Of a DNA stretch of 64,000 bases, positions 5,989 to 60,132 are shown in pieces (positions within the stretch are counted from its first letter, which is position 1; each line of letters starts with the position of its first letter). A program made the translations under genes and the position numbers. The stretch is from Candidatus Falkowbacteria bacterium GW2011_GWF2_43_32 (GTDB lineage Bacteria; Patescibacteriota; Patescibacteriia; Patescibacteriales; UBA12465). The stretch is taken from positions 323,139-387,138 of the forward strand of contig LCGL01000001.1 of assembly GCA_000999715.1 (NCBI GenBank), in the 5' to 3' direction. Below the pieces are notes generated by a model. That model was given only the letters and a program-made list of their open reading frames with translations, did no database searches and was not told where the DNA came from.

Positions 5989-6238
5989 GAGGGCTAATTG
6001 CTTAGCCCTCAAAAATTTAGAACTCGTTGAACTGCTTTCAAGGCTATTTCACTCTATTCGCCCCTTCGATTAATAAGGACGGTATCTTATTTTTGACTCC
6101 GCTAAAGCTGGCGCCCTAGGTTCACAGTCTCCCGCCTATTCTGCACATTACTAATCTATCTTCAAGCCAACATACAGGAATTGGACCCGCTGGAGATATA
6201 ATCTCTTGCGCCCATTGCGCTACATTGTTTCTAAATTT
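5985..6238 (-). ncRNA. candidate non-coding RNA B (mini-unit 5), about 255 nt, unknown family
   Basis: The promoter is TTGACA-17-TAATAT. The terminator-like hairpin GAGGGCTAAGCAATTAGCCCTC (6010-5989) has only a weak U-tract. No ORF longer than 9 codons is present. The 5' end (6238-6228) pairs over 11 bp with 6023-6013, just before the terminal hairpin, which is the same architecture as RNA A. Confidence 0.45.
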
Positions 6239-6838: not shown

Positions 6839-7057
6839 GGGTGCCTACTGGGAGTATCTCACTCAGCCGCCGCCGGAAACGCGGCGGCTTCGCTCGTCCT
6901 GGGTTGGCGCCGAGCCCTGCGCCAGCTCGGGTTCGTCGACGCTCGTCCGCTCATTTCGGCTTCCGCCTCAACTCGCGTCTCGCTTCCAACCTGTTCAACT
7001 TCCCGGCTAACGCCGACAGTAATAAAAGAACGCGCAAATGCGCGTTTTTTTATTACT
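6839..7057 (-). repeat. tRNA-His trailer module: hairpin, inverted T-arm copy, GC-rich spacer, 17-bp repeat of the tRNA 3' end
   Basis: gggtgcctactgggagt occurs at 6839-6855 and again at 7058-7074 inside the tRNA (17/17). The hairpin is at 7018-7057. gttcaacttccc (6993-7004) is an inverted T-arm copy. The spacer at 6856-6992 is GC-rich. Confidence 0.85.
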
Positions 7058-7058
7058 G

Positions 7059-7130
7059 GGTGCCTACTGGGAGTTGAACCCAGACTATCGGGACCACAAC
7101 CCGACGTTCTACCGCTAAACTATAGGCACC
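7059..7130 (-). tRNA. tRNA-His (anticodon GUG) with encoded G-1
   Basis: Cloverleaf read by eye: GGTGCCTA acceptor including G-1:C73, anticodon stem TCGGG/CCCGA, loop TTGTGGT, T-arm TGGGTTCAACTCCCA. Confidence 0.85.
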
Positions 7131-12978: not shown

Positions 12979-13241
12979 ATAGTTATAATTGTTATATTAT
13001 TTATTATATTAATTAATAATAACAATAAGGGAGTGGATAATTTTTACTTTTGGCGATTTTTTTAAAATTTATTAAGGATTTTTTAGATTTTCATGTTGAT
13101 AACTCTCGGGGCGTTTTGTTGATTACTTTTGACAACCGGTGGACAGAAAAAATATTTTTTAAGTTATTCACAAAACACTTTTTTTATCCACAAAGAAATT
13201 AACAAGATATCAACAAAATATTTGGTTAAAAACGGGCGGTT
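12979..13241. other. candidate oriC (DnaA-box cluster plus AT-rich tract) in the dnaA-dnaN intergenic region
   Basis: One perfect TTATCCACA lies at 13184-13192. Near-matches (8/9) are TTATTCACA at 13164-13172, aGTGGATAA at 13032-13040 and TGTtGATAA at 13094-13102. The tract at 12979-13030 is almost pure A/T. Confidence 0.6.
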
Positions 13242-14630
13242 TTAATAAGCGGCGGTAAATAACTGTCGGATAGAATCTACCTCTTGCTTTATCTTTTTGT
13301 TTTCCAACTCTTTTATTTCTTGGGAAATTTTGTTGTAAGAGTGCATGGCGGTGGTGTGGTCGCGCCCGCCCAGTTCGGCTCCGATTGCCGGATAAGACGT
13401 TCCCAGCTCTTCTCTAATCAAGAAAATGGCGATTTGTCTGGGCCAAACCAACTCCTTTTTGCGACTTTCCCCGGTCAGATCTTTATAATTTAAATTATAA
13501 AATTTGGCGGTTGTTTCAATAATTTCTTTGGGAGTCAGGGACCTTAATTGAATATTGGAAACATAGTCATTAAGAATCTCTTTGACCGTTTTAAGAGACG
13601 GAGACAATCCTTTAAATTGGTGCGAGGCAATAACCTTTGTTAAAGCTCCTTCCAGTTCTCGAATGTTGTTTTGAACGTGATCAGCAATGTAGGATAAGAT
13701 TTCTTTATCTAAAGGAAAGTTTTTTTCCAATGACTTTTTTTCTAAAATAGCAATTTTAGTTTCTATGTCCGGCTTGCCGATGTCGGCCACCATCCCCGAT
13801 TCAAACCGGGAAATCAGCCGTTTTTCAATCGCCGGCAAGGATTTTGGCGGACGATCGGAGGTCAAAACAATTTGCTTGTCGTTTTGTTGCAGTTCATTGA
13901 AGGTATGAAAGAATTCTTCTTGAGTTCCGTCTTTCCCACCCATAAATTGCACGTCGTCCACCAAAAGCAAGTCAACATTACGATAAAGATTTTTAAATTC
14001 TTTTGCTTTTCCGGTTTTTACGGCCTGGATATAATTATTGGTGAATTTTTCACTGGTGGTATATAATATTTTGTCACTGGTTTTGGCCACGACGCCGCCG
14101 ATCGCCTGAAGAAGATGGGTTTTTCCCAAGCCGACACCACCGTAAATAAACAAAGGGTTGTAAGATTTACCGAGATTTTCCGCCACAGCCAAGCAAGCGG
14201 CATGGGCCAACTCGTTGCCGCGTCCGACAATAAAATTTTCAAAGACATAGCGCGGATTTAGCCCGAAGCGGTTGCTTCCGCCATTCGATTCCCGAGAAAC
14301 GGAAGAATCGTTTTTAATCGTTTGAATGGGAGTCTCGATTTTTGTTTCACTTTTAGTCGCGAGAGGCGCTTGTCCGCCGCGTCGTAACTCGATTTTATAA
14401 ATAATTTCTTGGATCGGTTTTTTGGAAACGTTTTCCAGCGCACCGAGAATGTTTTTATGATATTTTTCCTCCAGCCATTTTTTTACAAAGGCGTTGGGAA
14501 CGCAAATAATGACTCGGTCATTTTCAAAAGAGGAAAGAAAGGTATCTTTAAACCAGGTAACAAAATTTGCTCGAGACAGCCCTATTTCAATTTCACCCAA
14601 AACGGCTTGCCATATTTGTTCGTTGGTCAT
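13242..14630 (-). CDS. dnaA: chromosomal replication initiator DnaA
   Basis: 462 aa with Walker A GGVGLGKTHL, the DDVQF box and the C-terminal DNA-binding motif GGRDHTT..H. Confidence 0.95.
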   Translation of the reverse strand: MTNEQIWQAVLGEIEIGLSRANFVTWFKDTFLSSFENDRVIICVPNAFVKKWLEEKYHKNILGALENVSKKPIQEIIYKIELRRGGQAPLATKSETKIETPIQTIKNDSSVSRESNGGSNRFGLNPRYVFENFIVGRGNELAHAACLAVAENLGKSYNPLFIYGGVGLGKTHLLQAIGGVVAKTSDKILYTTSEKFTNNYIQAVKTGKAKEFKNLYRNVDLLLVDDVQFMGGKDGTQEEFFHTFNELQQNDKQIVLTSDRPPKSLPAIEKRLISRFESGMVADIGKPDIETKIAILEKKSLEKNFPLDKEILSYIADHVQNNIRELEGALTKVIASHQFKGLSPSLKTVKEILNDYVSNIQLRSLTPKEIIETTAKFYNLNYKDLTGESRKKELVWPRQIAIFLIREELGTSYPAIGAELGGRDHTTAMHSYNKISQEIKELENKKIKQEVDSIRQLFTAAY

Positions 14631-14841
14631 AAGCGTGAAGTTGATAAGAATCCTTAATCGGAAAATATTAATAAATTTATAGTAGTCTAATTATATTAGA
14701 TAAACAAGTTCTTCACAAGTCGGAGTAATGTTTATAAGGTGTTGATAAGCGGGGGAAAACTATTTGGCGAGGTTTTAATCGGTTGACTTCGCCAAATAAA
14801 GGTGTTATGTTATAAAAATAATAAAGCATTTAATCATTAAT

Positions 14842-14979
14842 ATGCCCAAAAGAACTTATCAGCCCAATAAACGTCGCGCTAAAAAGAAACATGGTTTTAT
14901 CAAGAGAATGGAAACCAAGGACGGGCGCAAGGTTTTAAAACGTCGTCGTCAAAAAGGCCGTAAAAAAATAAGCAAATAA
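14842..14979 (+). CDS. rpmH: 50S ribosomal protein L34
   Basis: Own translation: [45 protein letters not shown]. This is the canonical L34 sequence and sits upstream of rnpA. It is too short for the ORF track. Confidence 0.95.
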
Positions 14980-14995
14980 GCTAGACAAGCGTCGC

Positions 14996-15340
14996 ATGCT
15001 TCCTAAAAACAAAAGAATTAGACTTAATAAAGATTTTGACCATACTTTTAAGACTGGTCAATCTTTTTATGGGCAAATTTTAGGCATTAAAGCGGCTAAA
15101 AACATTCTCCCCGGCAATCGCTTGGGAATTATTATTAATACGAAAGTTAGCAAAAAAGCTGTTGTCAGAAATCGTTTAAAACGGCAAATTAGAGAAATCG
15201 TTAAAAAAGAATTTTCTCTGCTGACAACCGGACATGACCTGGTTATTATCGTTTTTCCGCCAATAATAGATAAAAATTTTTTAGAAATTACCGCGGTCAT
15301 AAAAACCGGCTTAAAGCGTTTGGGCTTATATAAAGGATAA
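14996..15340 (+). CDS. rnpA: ribonuclease P protein component
   Basis: 114-aa basic protein in the conserved rpmH-rnpA-yidD-yidC order, with the RNR.KR..RE motif. Confidence 0.85.
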   Translation: MLPKNKRIRLNKDFDHTFKTGQSFYGQILGIKAAKNILPGNRLGIIINTKVSKKAVVRNRLKRQIREIVKKEFSLLTTGHDLVIIVFPPIIDKNFLEITAVIKTGLKRLGLYKG

Positions 15341-15358
15341 TTGGAATTGATTAACAGT

Positions 15359-15616
15359 ATGTTAAATTATATAAAGCACGGGCCCAGAAGATTGGTGGTT
15401 AAATTGATTAGAATTTATCAAAAAACCCTGTCCTTTGATCATGGCCCGTTAAAAGTTTATTATCCGCACGGTTTTTGTCGTTTTTCTCCCACCTGTTCCG
15501 ACTATGGGGCGGAAGCGATTACTAAATATGGCTTAATCAAGGGAGGGTTGATGGCTGGTTGGCGGATTTTACGTTGCAACCCCTGGAATAAGGGTGGACA
15601 CGATCCCGTAAAATAG
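15359..15616 (+). CDS. yidD: membrane protein insertion efficiency factor YidD
   Basis: Motifs CRF.PTCSDYG and [14 protein letters not shown] prefer the ATG at 15359 over the TTG at 15341 listed in the track. Confidence 0.85.
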
Positions 15617-15663
15617 ACAAGTTATTGAATTTATAATTTTAATACTCAAGCGAGAATAATCGT

Positions 15664-16419
15664 ATGAACAACCTTTTTACAAGTATTTTTTATCAACCGA
15701 TTCTTAATTTATTGGTCTTTTTATACAATACCGTTTCTTTCCATGACCTGGGCGTATCCATTGTTTTGTTGACCGCGATCATCAAATTGGTTTTTTGGCC
15801 CCTGGGAAAATCATCCATTAAATCTCAAAAAGCTTTACAAGACTTACAACCGAAATTGGAGGAGTTGAAAAAAACCTATGCCGGTGATAAAGCCGGGTTG
15901 AGCCGGGCCACTATGGATTTGTATAAGGAAAATAAAGTTAATCCTTTTTCTTCTTGTTTGCCCTTGTTAATTCAATTACCTTTCTTGTGGGCGGTGTACC
16001 GCGTTTTTCGCGATGGCGTAAATAATAAACTGGACTTGGTTTATTCTTTTATTACTCGACCGGAAACGATGAATGTTATTTCTTTCGGACTCTGGGATTT
16101 ATCTCAGCGCAGTATTGCCTTGGCGATTTTAGCCGGGCTGGCTCAATTTTGGCAAGCAAAGATGTTGATGTCCAAAAAACCGGTTGTGACCACTCCCGGA
16201 TCTAAAGATGAAAGCATGGCCGCCATCATGAATAAGCAAATGCTTTATTTTATGCCGGCCATTACCGTTTTTATCGGCCTTTCTCTTCCGGCTGGCCTGA
16301 CTTTATATTGGTTTTTCTTTACTTTGTTTACCGCTTTACAGCAAGTGCTCACTTTTCGTGAAAAAAATACTCCGGAAAACCGGAGTAAAAACACCATTGA
16401 GGGTGAGTTGATAAAATAA
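15664..16419 (+). CDS. yidC: YidC/Oxa1-family membrane protein insertase (short form)
   Basis: 251 aa with multiple TM segments. It has the K...LQP....K motif and sits in the conserved position after yidD. Confidence 0.85.
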   Translation: MNNLFTSIFYQPILNLLVFLYNTVSFHDLGVSIVLLTAIIKLVFWPLGKSSIKSQKALQDLQPKLEELKKTYAGDKAGLSRATMDLYKENKVNPFSSCLPLLIQLPFLWAVYRVFRDGVNNKLDLVYSFITRPETMNVISFGLWDLSQRSIALAILAGLAQFWQAKMLMSKKPVVTTPGSKDESMAAIMNKQMLYFMPAITVFIGLSLPAGLTLYWFFFTLFTALQQVLTFREKNTPENRSKNTIEGELIK

Positions 16420-39601: not shown

Positions 39602-39700
39602 GTGGACTTGAGGGGACTTTCGCGCTCGTTCGCCGCTTGTTCGAGTTCCTTTCGATCAGTCAATAAATTATTCAGACAAAGCCTGAATAATTTATTGATG
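39602..39700 (-). repeat. tRNA-Ala(CGC) trailer module: hairpin, inverted T-arm copy, GC-rich spacer, 17-bp repeat of the tRNA 3' end
   Basis: gtggacttgaggggact occurs at 39602-39618 and at 39700-39716 in the tRNA (17/17). A 16-bp-stem hairpin is at 39661-39697. gttcgagttcc (39639-39649) is an inverted T-arm copy with 1 mismatch. The spacer is ttcgcgctcgttcgccgctt. Confidence 0.85.
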
Positions 39701-39773
39701 TGGACTTGAGGGGACTCGAACCCCTTACCTCTGCAATGCGAATGCAGCGCTCTACCAGATGAGCTACAAGCCC
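39701..39773 (-). tRNA. tRNA-Ala (anticodon CGC)
   Basis: Acceptor GGGCTTG/CAAGTCC with G3:U70, anticodon stem CTGCA/TGCAG, loop TTCGCAT. Confidence 0.85.
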
Positions 39774-39862
39774 TTGTGGAGTTTAAATTAGCCTGGATTC
39801 GTCATTCCCCATCCACTATCCGTTATTTGTCGCTGACGGAGGCGGAGAATCAAGACCATTTG

Positions 39863-40091: not shown

Positions 40092-40372
40092 GGGGCGCGA
40101 GTTAGTTCTAAAGTTCAGTAGATACGTGCAGAACTTTAATGTTCAAGCCTTAAAAAGCTAGTTAGTTCTACTGCAAAAGAATAGTCTGACTGATGTGATT
40201 ATATTTGTGAATTTCTGAGGCTAGCGACCTCGGTGCTCCGTTTAGTATAATCGTTTCTATTGTTGATAAGTCGGCAACATCCCGGACCGTACCAGTCTTT
40301 GGCCGTATCGACGAAAAGGAACAGCACAGTCAAGAAAGGTTGGAGGGTTCGAATCTCTTCCGGTTCGCCCCA
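40092..40372 (+). ncRNA. tmRNA-like RNA (ssrA candidate) with a tRNA-like 3' end
   Basis: The promoter is TTGACA (40052-40057), 16-nt spacer, TAAATA. The 5' GGGGCG pairs with the 3' CGCCCC-A. A GGTTCGAATC T-loop lies near the 3' end. A strong terminator is at 40398-40428. The RNA is about 281 nt and sits beside tRNA genes. Caveats: position 3:70 reads G:C rather than G:U, there are extra nucleotides between the T-stem and the acceptor, and I could not assign a tag ORF with confidence. Confidence 0.45.
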
Positions 40373-40484
40373 CATTTTTGTTCTTTCATCTAAATCAGGG
40401 CCCGCTTATATCAAAAGCGGGCCTTTTTATTAATTTGCTAAAAACGGCCGATTAAATTACAATATTGATATAAAATAAAATTAT

Positions 40485-50355: not shown

Positions 50356-50523
50356 GTTTTAGTATTATCATAATAAATTTGGTTTATTGTCAAGTATTTG
50401 ACAGAATTCCATAATTATTACATTGGTTCCCTCTTGACTTTTATTTTTATTCTAGTATGATATAGATAGTTTTTATAGTAGTTTTGGCTATAAAATAGCA
50501 ATTGTTCCTTGAGGAACAATTTT

Positions 50524-50584
50524 GGGTTATTAGCTCTTCCCTCGCTTCCCGTTCATTAATTGACGAAGGCGGAGGCTAGAGCGC
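50524..50584 (+). repeat. pseudo 5' fragment of tRNA-Ala(GGC) with a 37-nt insertion at the D-loop position
   Basis: GGGTTATTAGCTC (50524-50536) matches the tRNA 5' end GGGCCATTAGCTC at 11/13. GGCTAGAGCGC (50574-50584) is identical to the tRNA D-arm at 50616-50626. The two pieces are separated by ttccctcgcttcccgttcattaattgacgaaggcgga. Confidence 0.7.
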
Positions 50585-50598
50585 CTCAATGTGTTTAA

Positions 50599-50672
50599 GG
50601 GCCATTAGCTCAGTTGGCTAGAGCGCTTCCATGGCATGGAAGAGGTCAAGGGTTCAAGTCCCTTATGGTCCA
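50599..50672 (+). tRNA. tRNA-Ala (anticodon GGC)
   Basis: Acceptor GGGCCAT/ATGGTCC with G3:U70, anticodon stem CTTCC/GGAAG, loop ATGGCAT, T-loop TTCAAGT. Confidence 0.85.
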
Positions 50673-50919
50673 CTAAAAAAAAGAACCCCACCTGCGTGGG
50701 GTTCTTTTTTTAAGATTGAAAGCATAAGGGACTTGAAAGCCGGAGGCGATGCGCACTTGTGCGCCGCCGAGGCCGGGTCGGGGCGCTTAGCGAGTGAGAC
50801 TTGCGAAGCAAGCGAGCGAGGCTTAGCGACCGTGACCAAGTCCCTTATGGTCCACTAATGAAAACAACCCGAACTGCTTTGGGTTGTTTTCATTAAAGAT
50901 AAAAATAAGGGACTTGAAC
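50673..50919 (+). repeat. tRNA-Ala(GGC) trailer module, doubled: hairpin, inverted T-arm, GC-rich spacer, 22-bp 3'-end repeat, second hairpin, second inverted T-arm
   Basis: caagtcccttatggtccactaa occurs at 50655-50676 and 50837-50858 (22/22). cataagggacttgaa (50723-50737) and ataagggacttgaac (50905-50919) are 15-nt exact inverted copies of the T-arm. Hairpins are at 50676-50712 and 50859-50895. The GC-rich spacer is at 50738-50836. Confidence 0.85.
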
Positions 50920-59919: not shown

Positions 59920-60060
59920 AGAGCGGGTAAGGGGAATAGCGTGCTCGATTATTCGTCGTCGCTTCCGCTCCTCCTCATATCTCGCTCGCTACCTGTCCGA
60001 TTCCCGGCTCGACTCTTATAAAATAAAACAGCCCCTGACGAGGCCGTTTCATTTTATAAG
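59920..60060 (-). repeat. tRNA-Gly trailer module: hairpin, inverted T-arm copy, GC-rich spacer, 18-bp repeat of the tRNA 3' end
   Basis: agagcgggtaaggggaat occurs at 59920-59937 and 60059-60076 (18/18). The hairpin is at 60015-60060. gtccgattccc (59995-60005) is an exact inverted T-arm copy. The spacer at 59938-59994 contains ctcgctcgct and cgtcgtcgcttccgc. Confidence 0.85.
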
Positions 60061-60132
60061 AGCGGGTAAGGGGAATCGGACCCCTCTCATAAGGTTGGAA
60101 ACCTTAGGTAATAACCACTATACGATACCCGC
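60061..60132 (-). tRNA. tRNA-Gly (anticodon UCC)
   Basis: Acceptor GCGGGTA/TACCCGC, anticodon stem TAAGG/CCTTA, loop TTTCCAA, T-arm GGGGTCCGATTCCCC. Confidence 0.8.

Follow-up and report, generated by a model that had tools for sequence, protein, structure and literature searches.

The repeats downstream of tRNA-Ala(GGC) probably represent one member of a multi-copy, non-autonomous family of insertion cassettes that are specific for tRNA 3' ends in Patescibacteria (CPR bacteria). In the 64-kb stretch of DNA analysed here (the window), the same layout is found at 4 of the 11 tRNA genes, those for His, Ala(CGC), Ala(GGC) and Gly(TCC). At each, a contiguous and intact tRNA is followed by a terminator-like hairpin (hp), a short linker rich in AT, the T-loop and 3' T-stem strand of the host tRNA in inverted orientation (antiT), a GC-rich spacer (S) and a direct copy (A2) of the 3' part of the host tRNA, which starts at T-loop position 56-58. 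The cassettes are non-coding, are small (about 80-200 nt, with instances of 80-250 nt), keep a constant order of parts and contain no ORF. What the initial annotation took for a doubled module of a single tRNA trailer is instead one locus of a family with copies at many tRNA genes.

At the Ala(GGC) locus, all parts of which lie on the forward strand, the intact tRNA occupies positions 50599-50673 (ARAGORN; Rfam tRNA, 64.8 bits), with the discriminator at 50672, C74 at 50673 and no CCA in the gene. Its positions 56-74, together with a following TAA, constitute the first copy (A1, 50655-50676) of the 22-nt direct repeat CAAGTCCCTTATGGTCCACTAA; the second copy, A2 (50837-50858), lies outside any tRNA. 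Between the two are hp1 (50673-50714), a terminator-like hairpin composed of an A-tract, a GC stem, a CTGC loop and a T-tract; antiT1 (50723-50737), the exact reverse complement of tRNA positions 54-68; and the 99-nt S2 spacer (50738-50836), a GC-rich structured core identified by RNAalifold and covariance model R1. AntiT1 covers the T-loop, the 3' T-stem strand and 3 nt at the beginning of the acceptor 3' strand, and is conserved in L083-L092. Past A2, a truncated second unit begins with hp2 (50856-50895), which is homologous to hp1 though diverged and has an identical CTGC loop, and ends with antiT2 (50905-50919), the exact reverse complement of tRNA positions 53-67. The 22-nt repeat, both hairpins, the inverted T-arm copies, the 99-nt spacer and the individual strings quoted in the initial annotation were all confirmed in place. 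The motif CAAGTCCCTTAT occurs four times in the 64 kb, always at this locus, compared with 0.21 expected occurrences, and none of 100 shuffles reaches four. The earlier view that the arrangement is not random debris is supported. Two independent assemblies from different runs are base-for-base identical at this locus, and thus the repeat is not an assembly artefact.

The doubling noted earlier is real as a repeat, in the form of a truncated and diverged tandem copy of a 182-nt unit. The supposed doubled module thus consists of unit 1 and the remains of an older unit 2, which has diverged and is truncated to its hairpin and antiT. The two hairpins, previously considered different in sequence and alike in design, are in fact homologous, being 85% identical over a 54-nt register with the same CTGC loop and compensatory differences in the stem. 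Orthologues of hp1 also keep the CTGC loop and show compensatory stem changes, with T.G pairs on the tRNA-sense strand alone. An RNA that stops at hp1 is predicted to fold into a cloverleaf plus a hairpin. When hp1 and hp2 were tested as terminators, inspection revealed the stem GAACCCCAC/GTGGGGTTC followed by T7; the hairpin is missing from the consensus list of the terminator scan because the T-run pairs with the upstream A-tract, inside an extended stem. The antiT2-end junction recurs in a 90%-identical relative (L083), where ...CATAAGGAACTTGAAC directly abuts GGATGGCTAT; the contig of this relative stops within the cassette, 90 nt upstream of the hydrolase gene. The repeated region also reaches further upstream than first described. 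At 50524-50591 (forward strand), with a conserved hairpin on its upstream side and the real tRNA after it, lies a degenerate piece of the 5' part of tRNA-Ala (positions 1-13 and 18-36), recognized by its direct repeats and broken by a 37-nt insert (TTCCCTCGCTTCCC...GAAGGCGGA). This fragment is absent in L084, L085, L087, L089 and L091, in which the hairpin is followed by ~12 nt and then the tRNA.

The other cassettes of the window lie on the reverse strand. The tRNA-His cassette (6839-7057) comprises a hairpin at 7018-7057, antiT at 6993-7004, an S1 spacer at 6856-6992 and A2 at 6839-6855, corresponding to tRNA positions 58-74; its S1 is homologous to spacers behind tRNA-Ala(GGC) in L087 and L091. 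In the tRNA-Ala(CGC) cassette (39602-39699; hairpin 39660-39699, antiT 39639-39649, A2 39602-39618), S1 is reduced to a 20-nt remnant at 39619-39638. The tRNA-Gly(TCC) cassette (59921-60059; hairpin 60016-60059, antiT 59995-60005, A2 59921-59937) has a truncated S1 at 59938-59994, and its antiT matches the unusual TCCGATT loop of that tRNA. In every case examined, both flanks agree with the local tRNA (AATCGGA at Gly, AGTTGAA at His, ACTCGAA at Ala(CGC) and GGAATTGAA at Pro). Orientation in these four cases follows the tRNA and not the direction of replication: relative to an origin near 13-15.6 kb (dnaA/dnaN, GC-skew minimum), the His and Ala(GGC) cassettes are co-directional with replication, and the Ala(CGC) and Gly cassettes are head-on.

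Across 78 tRNAs in 91 CPR/DPANN sequences, the direct repeat was detected at 18 and the inverted copy at 15. In 12 loci, the direct repeats start at tRNA position 56-59 and stop at position 74 or CCA. Some repeats extend 13 nt or a whole hairpin past the tRNA. A2 lacks CCA wherever the gene lacks it, indicating that A2 is a DNA-level copy; a cDNA retro-copy of the mature tRNA was rejected on this ground. Degenerate A2 copies are seen in L006, L087, L091 and L018, and A1 is never decayed; antiT stays perfect even where A2 has decayed. In L006 and L086, antiT spans the whole 12-bp acceptor/T-arm equivalent, and the inverted copy takes in almost all of the 3' segment. At Ala(CGC), the native flank AATAAAT lies in the left arm of the hairpin and is present again after A2. 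Orthologous loci had been proposed as a check in the initial annotation, with loss of the inverted copies in related strains as part of what would speak against it; the inverted copies are conserved in the relatives.

The GC-rich stretch that was initially read as a spacer between repeat copies proved to be the conserved core of the element rather than filler. According to matches of covariance model R1, the S2 family resides at tRNA-Ala(GGC), Pro(GGG), Val(TAC) and Val(GAC), and S1 is found at tRNA-His, Gly, Ala(CGC) and Ala(GGC). Spacer lengths range from 57 to 137 nt, apart from the 20-nt remnant at Ala(CGC) of the window. Sequence similarity between S copies persists in genomes whose proteins are only 55-70% identical, and a 47-nt stretch occurs without mismatch both in the Gly(TCC) cassette of the window and in the cassette at tRNA-Ala(CGC) of L096, a pair of genomes with 65% identical LCP proteins. 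RNAalifold yields for S2 two helical arms closed by a helix between antiT1 and A2. In the S2 alignment, 95.6% of cells are paired, compared with 33-38% in slid controls, and 26 of 44 pairs show compensatory changes, a count that none of 500 shuffles reaches, with an alignment that is fitted to the model and favours that structure. Among four S1 sequences, 20 of 39 pairs are compensatory. G.U pairs far outnumber A.C pairs on the tRNA-sense strand. The comparative models thus show S1 and S2 folding on the tRNA-sense strand as predicted multi-helix domains closed by antiT:A2. This agrees with the earlier proposal that the T-arm copies pair to close the spacer; the competing pairing with the real T-arm, also raised at the time, is likewise predicted to be strong (P1 = -46.9 kcal/mol). 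Each family meets A2 at its own specific junction. Hairpins at loci with a common S are non-homologous, leaving the exact limits of the mobile unit ambiguous.

Related genomes contain both empty and filled sites. In L003, L004 and L016, tRNA-Ala(GGC) is followed after ~25 nt by the hydrolase gene. In L098 and L100/L101, the spacers of a Pro-Ala-Pro cluster measure 11-20 nt; in the window and in L096, these sites are filled. The Ala(CGC) site is empty in L098 and L100/L101 and carries in L096 two full 199-nt units that are 100% identical. Relative to these empty sites of related genomes, the entire cassette block is an insertion. The units stand in tandem in 1.1-2.3 copies, depending on the genome, and this copy-number variation fits recombination between the repeats. 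The second unit matches the first almost completely over 107-123 nt in L084, L089, L085 and L092. The tandem repeat is perfect for 120 nt in L084 and for 119 nt in L089, whereas L085 and L092 show a few mismatches. Different S families can occupy the same tRNA (L087 versus L084) or be stacked behind a single one, as in L091, where S2 precedes S1. Among the sequences compared, we found no near-identical pair of strains that differ by a single cassette; mobility is therefore inferred from distribution and not from a fresh event.

Searches for known families did not account for the cassettes. At gathering thresholds, Rfam 15 returned for the whole window only tRNAs, 16S rRNA and one LSU fragment; at permissive thresholds over the Ala(GGC) and His cassettes, all matches other than tRNA fell far below threshold, and those that overlap the spacers came solely from long models far below their gathering scores. 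Queries with the tRNA 3' end and with S1 and S2 motifs against 2.9 million viral contigs gave nothing or chance matches in high-GC DNA. A full-text literature search found no description of such a tRNA-bracketed cassette family. Several other candidates were considered and rejected. A degenerate second tRNA gene does not agree with an S that lacks the acceptor 5' strand, the D arm and the anticodon arm. The hydrolase gene is not repeat-bounded cargo, as judged from 12 loci in which no further direct or inverted copy occurs downstream of it. For hammerhead and other small ribozymes, neither core motifs nor an Rfam match were seen, and an integron attC-like site is unfit in the orientation and consensus of its core sites, by inspection only. 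The replication-strand bias of a single-strand transposase was not seen, with two cassettes co-directional and two head-on. A tRNA intron was discarded given the contiguous tRNA and the lack of a group I match in Rfam; published tRNA introns of Patescibacteria are of group I and located at position 35/36 (PMC13011429).

Of the rival explanations, the one that weighs most is a host-functional RNA, a tRNA trailer that would arise by read-through of the hairpin, with copies at different tRNAs as selected paralogous duplications. The antiT:A2 helix and a free acceptor 3' strand would then create a minihelix-like end, a candidate substrate for RNase P, RNase Z or the CCA-adding enzyme, and processing might release a small RNA or regulate the maturation or quality control of the upstream tRNA. 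The strong compensatory change in S2 and S1, the G.U bias toward the tRNA-sense strand, an orientation that tracks the tRNA rather than replication, the extended antiT of L006 and L086 and the conservation of S despite protein divergence all speak for such an RNA. Indeed, sense-strand covariation would also be expected of a host-functional RNA and to that extent counts against mobility. However, the same tRNAs have empty sites in related genomes, A2 is degenerate at several loci, S families swap at one tRNA, internal deletion has left 20 nt at Ala(CGC) of the window, and second copies are truncated. With a strong hairpin and T-tract upstream of S and no matching Rfam family, we regard a host RNA as rather unlikely.

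Two other rivals start from the repeats themselves. The cassettes could be scars of integrases, that is, of phages, plasmids or islands that entered tRNA T-loops, each duplicating the identity block from the T-loop to the 3' end, and were later reduced by internal deletion to their attL/attR arms. T-loop-class sites reportedly span the T-loop to the 3' end, exactly the segment that is directly repeated here; the element-proximal copy restores the tRNA, and tandem and stacked arrangements are present. On the other hand, every instance is 80-250 nt long with constant part order and no ORF, the spacer-A2 junction is specific to the family, and the 2.9 million viral contigs hold no S motifs bar chance high-GC matches. 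A scar family would be tied to one tRNA core, whereas S2 and S1 are each found at four tRNAs, which is unexpected for a site-specific attP; nor is sense-strand covariation expected of double-stranded protein-binding arms. Scars also leave the tRNA-matched inverted copy unexplained. On the whole, this origin is very unlikely. We consider it more improbable still that the cassettes arose by replication error with no element involved. Here, a snap-back switch at the terminator palindrome and a second switch at the T-arm would copy the tRNA 3' part backwards and then forward, producing a tandem inversion duplication in which quasi-palindrome correction could keep antiT perfect. Such a course would match the direct-inverted-direct order of copies with a palindrome at the first junction, the inverted copy over nearly the whole 3' segment in L006 and L086, the native AATAAAT in the Ala(CGC) hairpin and again after A2, and the perfection of antiT beside decayed A2. 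But a conserved, foreign, structured spacer of 57-137 nt (20 nt in the Ala(CGC) remnant) sits at the second junction and is common to unrelated tRNA loci and genomes, and the empty sites offer no hairpin to snap back on. Replication error may account for how antiT arose or is maintained; it leaves the spacer unexplained.

Comparison with known systems suggests partial likenesses to several. Like tyrosine-integrase elements at tRNA sites, the cassettes insert 3' of an intact tRNA, show a direct repeat from the T-loop to the 3' end and occur in tandem or stacked. Unlike them, they lack integrase and cargo, possess an extra inverted T-arm copy, and have spacer families that serve several tRNAs with matching repeats and covary as a single strand; neither an integrase gene nor a kb-sized element is present in the 80-250 nt between repeats, and no integrase Pfam domain was found among the window genes. 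Casposons are said to insert at the 3' ends of tRNA genes, to duplicate 14-15 bp and to form tandem arrays. Casposons and CRISPR spacer integration thus resemble the cassettes in the tRNA 3'-end target, the duplication of the tRNA end and the tandem arrays. In contrast to casposons, the cassettes have no terminal inverted repeats of their own, show no Cas1 (they hold no ORF), reside in another host phylum and duplicate 16-22 nt or more, with the left end set by tRNA coordinates. Small size, non-coding nature, multiple copies, hairpin formation and an often terminator-like character are shared with MITEs, REP, BIME, REPIN, Correia and IS200/IS605-derived PATE elements, and presence/absence variation, as in MITEs, is also observed. 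The inverted repeats that flank S (antiT and A2) are, however, derived from the target and differ with each host tRNA; instead of a short target duplication of fixed length, repeats of 16-22 nt or more have limits set by the tRNA; and the cassettes stand strictly behind tRNAs and co-oriented with them.

TnpB/IscB omega-RNAs and IS110 bridge RNAs resemble the cassettes in layout only: a scaffold (S) precedes a 16-22-nt stretch identical to the target (A2), a target-complementary stretch (antiT) lies upstream, and insertion follows the T-loop pentanucleotide TTCRA. In contrast to these elements, neither the cassettes nor the rest of the window hold a gene for a nuclease or recombinase, and there is no sequence or Rfam similarity. 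To our knowledge, a target duplication of 17-22 nt is not a feature of TnpB/IscB and IS110 elements. No TnpA/TnpB partner was found in the 64-kb window, and the presence of a target duplication is contrary to the IS200/IS605 type. Tandem inversion duplications and quasi-palindrome switching in Salmonella and E. coli show the same direct-inverted-direct order around a palindrome and the perfecting of imperfect palindromes, but the cassettes carry a foreign spacer at the second junction and recur at many tRNAs and genomes. Archaeal non-canonical tRNA introns and split tRNAs (T-loop positions 56-60) share the break in the T-loop and GC-rich complementary segments; the cassettes differ in their bacterial host, a tRNA that is complete without splicing and a downstream 3' piece that is dispensable and decays.

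For the insertion cassettes that we favour, the following course can be proposed. The cassette would be transcribed by read-through from the tRNA promoter, and antiT:A2 pairing may prevent competition between the spare 3' segment and the genuine one; another option is that antiT pairs with A1 in the read-through RNA. Tandem copies would be gained and lost via unequal recombination or slippage between the A repeats. For spread to the same tRNA gene in other genomes, the ultra-conserved tRNA body and A2 could serve as homology arms, and a jump to a new tRNA would re-template both flanks from the target. Both junctions fall within the universally conserved T-loop (positions 53/54 and 56-58), which favours T-loop-anchored recombination or template switching. 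This step, with the putative activity behind it, is the weakest. The cassettes have no linked recombinase, transposase or reverse transcriptase, nor does the 64-kb window encode one, and we know of no transposition chemistry that accounts for target-derived flanks in both inverted and direct orientation. It is possible, if tentative, that the cassettes stand for something new altogether, either a class of elements specific for tRNA genes or a class of small RNA whose maturation relies on the tRNA-processing machinery. As an element, S would be a structured RNA or single-stranded module inserting behind any tRNA via T-loop anchoring; the target would be copied in both orientations at insertion to give antiT and A2, 'guide-like' flanks rebuilt at each site, by a putative enzyme or with no dedicated one. 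As a small RNA, antiT-S-A2 would mature through the minihelix-like end.

Patescibacteria have tiny and strongly reduced genomes, yet about a quarter of the sampled tRNA genes hold cassettes, in some cases repeated perfectly in tandem. Should the cassettes be mobile, they would represent a tRNA-specific parasite that spares its essential target and has its flanks rebuilt from each new one, for which we know of no transposition or integration mechanism. If they act as functional RNAs, two or three new and widespread classes of structured RNA linked to tRNA maturation would be added in a phylum whose RNA biology is unusual. In practical terms, the repeats break short-read assemblies at tRNA loci, with contigs L002 and L083 ending inside a cassette or tRNA, and partial tRNA copies from cassettes could pass for integration scars. 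Cassettes can also reshape adjacent genes, as in L089, where a cassette copy stands in place of the start of the hydrolase gene.

At the tRNA-Ala(GGC) gene (50599-50672/3), every element listed in the initial annotation was found where it had been placed: a 22-nt direct repeat, CAAGTCCCTTATGGTCCACTAA, at 50655-50676 (A1, the tRNA's own 3' segment) and 50837-50858 (A2, the distal copy); two hairpins (50673-50714 and 50856-50895); two exact inverted T-arm copies, or antiT (50723-50737 and 50905-50919); and a GC-rich spacer of 99 nt (50738-50836). All four occurrences of the 12-mer CAAGTCCCTTAT in the 64 kb lie at this locus, against 0.21 copies expected by chance, and none of 100 shuffles matched that count. 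Two independent assemblies from separate sequencing runs are identical here. The annotation had called the two hairpins different in sequence but alike in design; the common design holds, whereas unrelated sequence does not, as the hairpins are homologous (85% identity over a 54-nt register). They have a CTGC loop in common, and their stem differences are compensatory. The interpretation offered, selection or a templated mechanism rather than random debris, is supported in part, and the observation itself is confirmed. Just 5' of the tRNA lie a degenerate piece of this tRNA-Ala's 5' part with a 37-nt insert (50524-50591) and a perfect hairpin, ATTGTTCCTTGAGGAACAAT (50500-50521), which a terminator scan flagged on the minus strand and which is kept in the related contigs L084, L085, L087, L089 and L091. 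Judged by its flanking proteins, the window belongs to Patescibacteria, and by source names to Candidatus Falkowbacteria.

When all tRNAs in the window were scanned for copies of their own 3' ends, the same layout appeared on the minus strand at tRNA-His (7058-7129), tRNA-Ala-CGC (39700-39773) and tRNA-Gly-TCC (60060-60132). At these three and at Ala-GGC the order is invariant: tRNA, A/T-flanked hairpin, antiT, a GC- and purine-rich spacer, and A2. In all four, antiT is an inverted copy of the T-loop and 3' T-stem strand of the adjoining tRNA itself, and A2 is a direct repeat, 16 nt or longer, running from T-loop position 58 (56 at Ala-GGC) to position 74. AntiT is accordingly tRNA-specific, reading AGTTGAA at His, ACTCGAA at Ala-CGC and AATCGGA at Gly, the last complementing Gly's unusual TCCGATT loop. 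That tRNA-Gly(TCC) carries C for the near-universal T at position 55, and the inverted copy in its cassette is altered to match, which suggests co-variation or conversion between tRNA and cassette. Across 91 CPR/DPANN sequences, a direct repeat of this type follows 18 of 78 tRNAs and an inverted T-arm copy 15 of 78; several of the surveyed tRNAs with no exact repeat retain one in decayed form.

Three relatives with the gene order of the window, tRNA-Arg(CCT), tRNA-Ala(GGC), Ser_hydrolase (L003, L004 and L016), have the hydrolase gene ~25 nt after an identical or near-identical tRNA-Ala(GGC), and hairpin, inverted copy and repeat are all absent behind that tRNA. Because these relatives lack them, the ~265 extra nucleotides of the window represent an insertion. 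A second locus compared was the Pro(GGG)-Ala(CGC)-Pro(CGG) tRNA cluster between a tRNA-synthetase gene and an LCP gene. The cluster is empty in L098 and L100/L101, where its three tRNAs are spaced by 11-20 nt. L096, which shares its population with L084, has behind tRNA-Pro(GGG) a hairpin, that tRNA's own antiT (GGAATTGAA), a spacer of the family found behind tRNA-Ala(GGC) in the window (S2) and a copy of the tRNA's own 3' end (CAATTCCCGGCACCCCGAC). Behind tRNA-Ala(CGC) in the same contig stand two 199-nt units, 100% identical and each composed of hairpin, antiT, repeat and, between the latter two, a spacer of the family found behind tRNA-His (S1), and then a third hairpin. The Ala(CGC) site of the window has the same cassette, with its spacer reduced by deletion to 20 nt. 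Between tRNA-Pro(GGG) and tRNA-Ala(CGC) the window has 88 nt (39774-39861, minus strand) versus 11-16 nt in empty relatives, and GGGGAATGACGAATCC within this interval is possibly the decayed remnant of an inverted copy of the tRNA-Pro T-arm.

Further related loci came from scanning metagenome contigs for the pattern. The window's architecture recurs behind the same tRNA-Ala(GGC) in L084, L085, L089 and L092, where copies 1 and 2 are near or fully identical over 107-123 nt (a perfect repeat of 120 nt in L084 and 119 nt in L089). Copy 2 there continues beyond antiT as far as the spacer's first hairpin, with a breakpoint that differs by lineage, which indicates that the Ala-GGC structure comprises ~1.6 tandem copies of a ~182-nt unit. 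In the window, copy 2 has a diverged hairpin and has lost its spacer, and the tRNA-derived 22-nt and 15-nt parts remain perfect. Copy 2 of L089 has merged with the hydrolase coding sequence, whose start codon is gone: the truncated copy is joined straight to about codon 6 (…GCCGAG|TTTATATTATTCATGG; 6080-6100). Turnover of a cassette can thus harm an adjacent gene. In L091 a single complete unit precedes a degenerate second palindrome, after which comes a spacer of another family; L087 has the same tRNA-Ala(GGC), yet its spacer is homologous to that of the window's tRNA-His; and S2-like spacers stand behind two different tRNA-Val genes in L090/L088 and L006. The spacers of tRNA-Gly in the window and tRNA-Ala(CGC) in L096 have 47 nt of exact identity, and identity between the LCP proteins of the two genomes is just 65%. 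A GC-rich palindrome, CCTGCCGGCAGGCAGG, which breaks the distal repeat in L018 (~2490-2510) and also lies within a tRNA-Val cassette of L071 (~1870-1890), is perhaps a very small palindromic repeat in its own right.

For S2, RNAalifold on six Ala-GGC loci predicted a three-way junction closed by an antiT:A2 helix, with compensatory changes at nine pairs, and a covariance model from these six sequences recovered more members at Pro(GGG), Val(TAC) and Val(GAC) loci. In an alignment that was fitted to this model and hence biased toward its structure, 95.6% of cells were paired and 26 of 44 pairs had changed on both sides; none of 500 shuffles reached these values, and slid controls were 33-38% paired. 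Four S1 sequences from four tRNA contexts gave 39 pairs, 20 with compensatory changes, in a fold likewise closed by antiT:A2. On the tRNA-sense strand of the spacers G.U pairs are common and A.C pairs rare, and hairpins tolerate T.G on that strand only; the tRNA-sense strand is therefore the one that folds. Predicted energies are -46.9 kcal/mol for the A1-hairpin-antiT palindrome, -41.3 kcal/mol for the second palindrome and -67.9 kcal/mol for antiT-S2-A2, and a transcript ending at hairpin 1 is predicted to fold into an ordinary cloverleaf with the hairpin after it.

The cassette layout is a real and recurring feature. Its units are inserted relative to empty sites, are amplified in tandem and decay; their families are multi-copy and common to different tRNAs and genomes, both flanks come from the local tRNA, and the single-strand fold of the spacer is conserved. 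Of the readings considered, the evidence best supports non-autonomous insertion cassettes, forming a family specific to the 3' ends of tRNA genes. The main rival holds that the spacers are host-functional tRNA-trailer RNAs, which the covariation and strand bias fit as well as they fit insertion cassettes; the empty sites, the interchangeability of families, the deletions inside units and the decay of repeats speak against an essential role. Snap-back template switching, acting at the hairpin, could give rise to antiT and keep it up, but leaves the common spacer unexplained. A1 is intact at every locus and A2 is at times truncated, mutated or interrupted (L006, L087, L091, L018), so the tRNA does not depend on A2, and an intron is rejected on that ground; known tRNA introns of Patescibacteria are group I introns at position 35/36 (PMC13011429). 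Wherever the gene lacks CCA so does A2, so that DNA or a precursor served as the template and mature tRNA did not. Relative to the origin at dnaA/dnaN, two of the window's cassettes run with replication and two run head-on to it, each co-oriented with its own tRNA, which argues against a mechanism dependent on the lagging-strand template.

As insertion cassettes, these units would change copy number by unequal recombination between A repeats, which would account for the 'doubled module' of the initial annotation. Read-through from the tRNA promoter would express the cassette, and antiT could pair with the spare 3' segment, neutralising it. Spread could reach the same tRNA gene in other genomes, with the invariant tRNA and A2 as homology arms. 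Occasional jumps to new tRNAs would re-template an inverted and a direct copy of the target and would be anchored in the T-loop, because both junctions fall there (antiT at 53/54, A2 at 56-58) and it is the only block common to all tRNAs. The cassettes contain no ORF, the spacers match no Rfam family, and their motifs were not found in viral contigs, chance matches aside. Full-text literature searches returned no description of such cassettes; tRNA-associated insertions and MITE-like repeats are related known kinds, and we think it rather unlikely that the feature is mechanistically new.

The window's genes are housekeeping only, including dnaA/dnaN at the GC-skew minimum. This origin region (~13000-15700, minimum of cumulative skew) has dnaN and dnaA on the minus strand and rpmH-rnpA-yidD-yidC on the plus strand. 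The Ser_hydrolase gene (PF06821; 50966-51556) has homologues at loci L003-L028, and in 13 of the 26 closer ones it lies directly 3' of a same-strand tRNA of one of nine identities (Ala-GGC, Arg-TCG, Val-GAC, Leu-GAG, Lys-TTT, Ala-TGC, Ala-CGC, Glu-TTC and Gly-GCC/TCC). More distant homologue loci have no such adjoining tRNA, and no second tRNA repeat bounds the gene, whose movement to tRNA 3' flanks, or retention there, is a possibility. In a 2.7-kb stretch with small ORFs only, 89 nt standing alone (6068-6156, minus strand) match bacterial LSU rRNA (model positions 2126-2215, the L1-stalk region; gathering-threshold score) and may be an rRNA mimic or fragment. By eye, a candidate tmRNA gene at 40092-40375 (plus strand), detected by neither ARAGORN nor Rfam, begins with GGGGCG and ends with a T-arm-like GGAGGGTTCGAATCTC plus CGCCCCA, with a terminator hairpin behind it (~40399-40425). 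Between tRNA-Arg(CCT) and tRNA-Ala(GGC), L003 (2890-3900) and L004 (2855-3880) have a different kind of tRNA-flank insertion, with a partial tRNA-Arg copy (anticodon arm to 3' end) and an ORF, similar on visual inspection to a DUF559/Vsr-like endonuclease, with many CCTCCTCTT...AAGAGGAGG hairpin repeats on its flanks.
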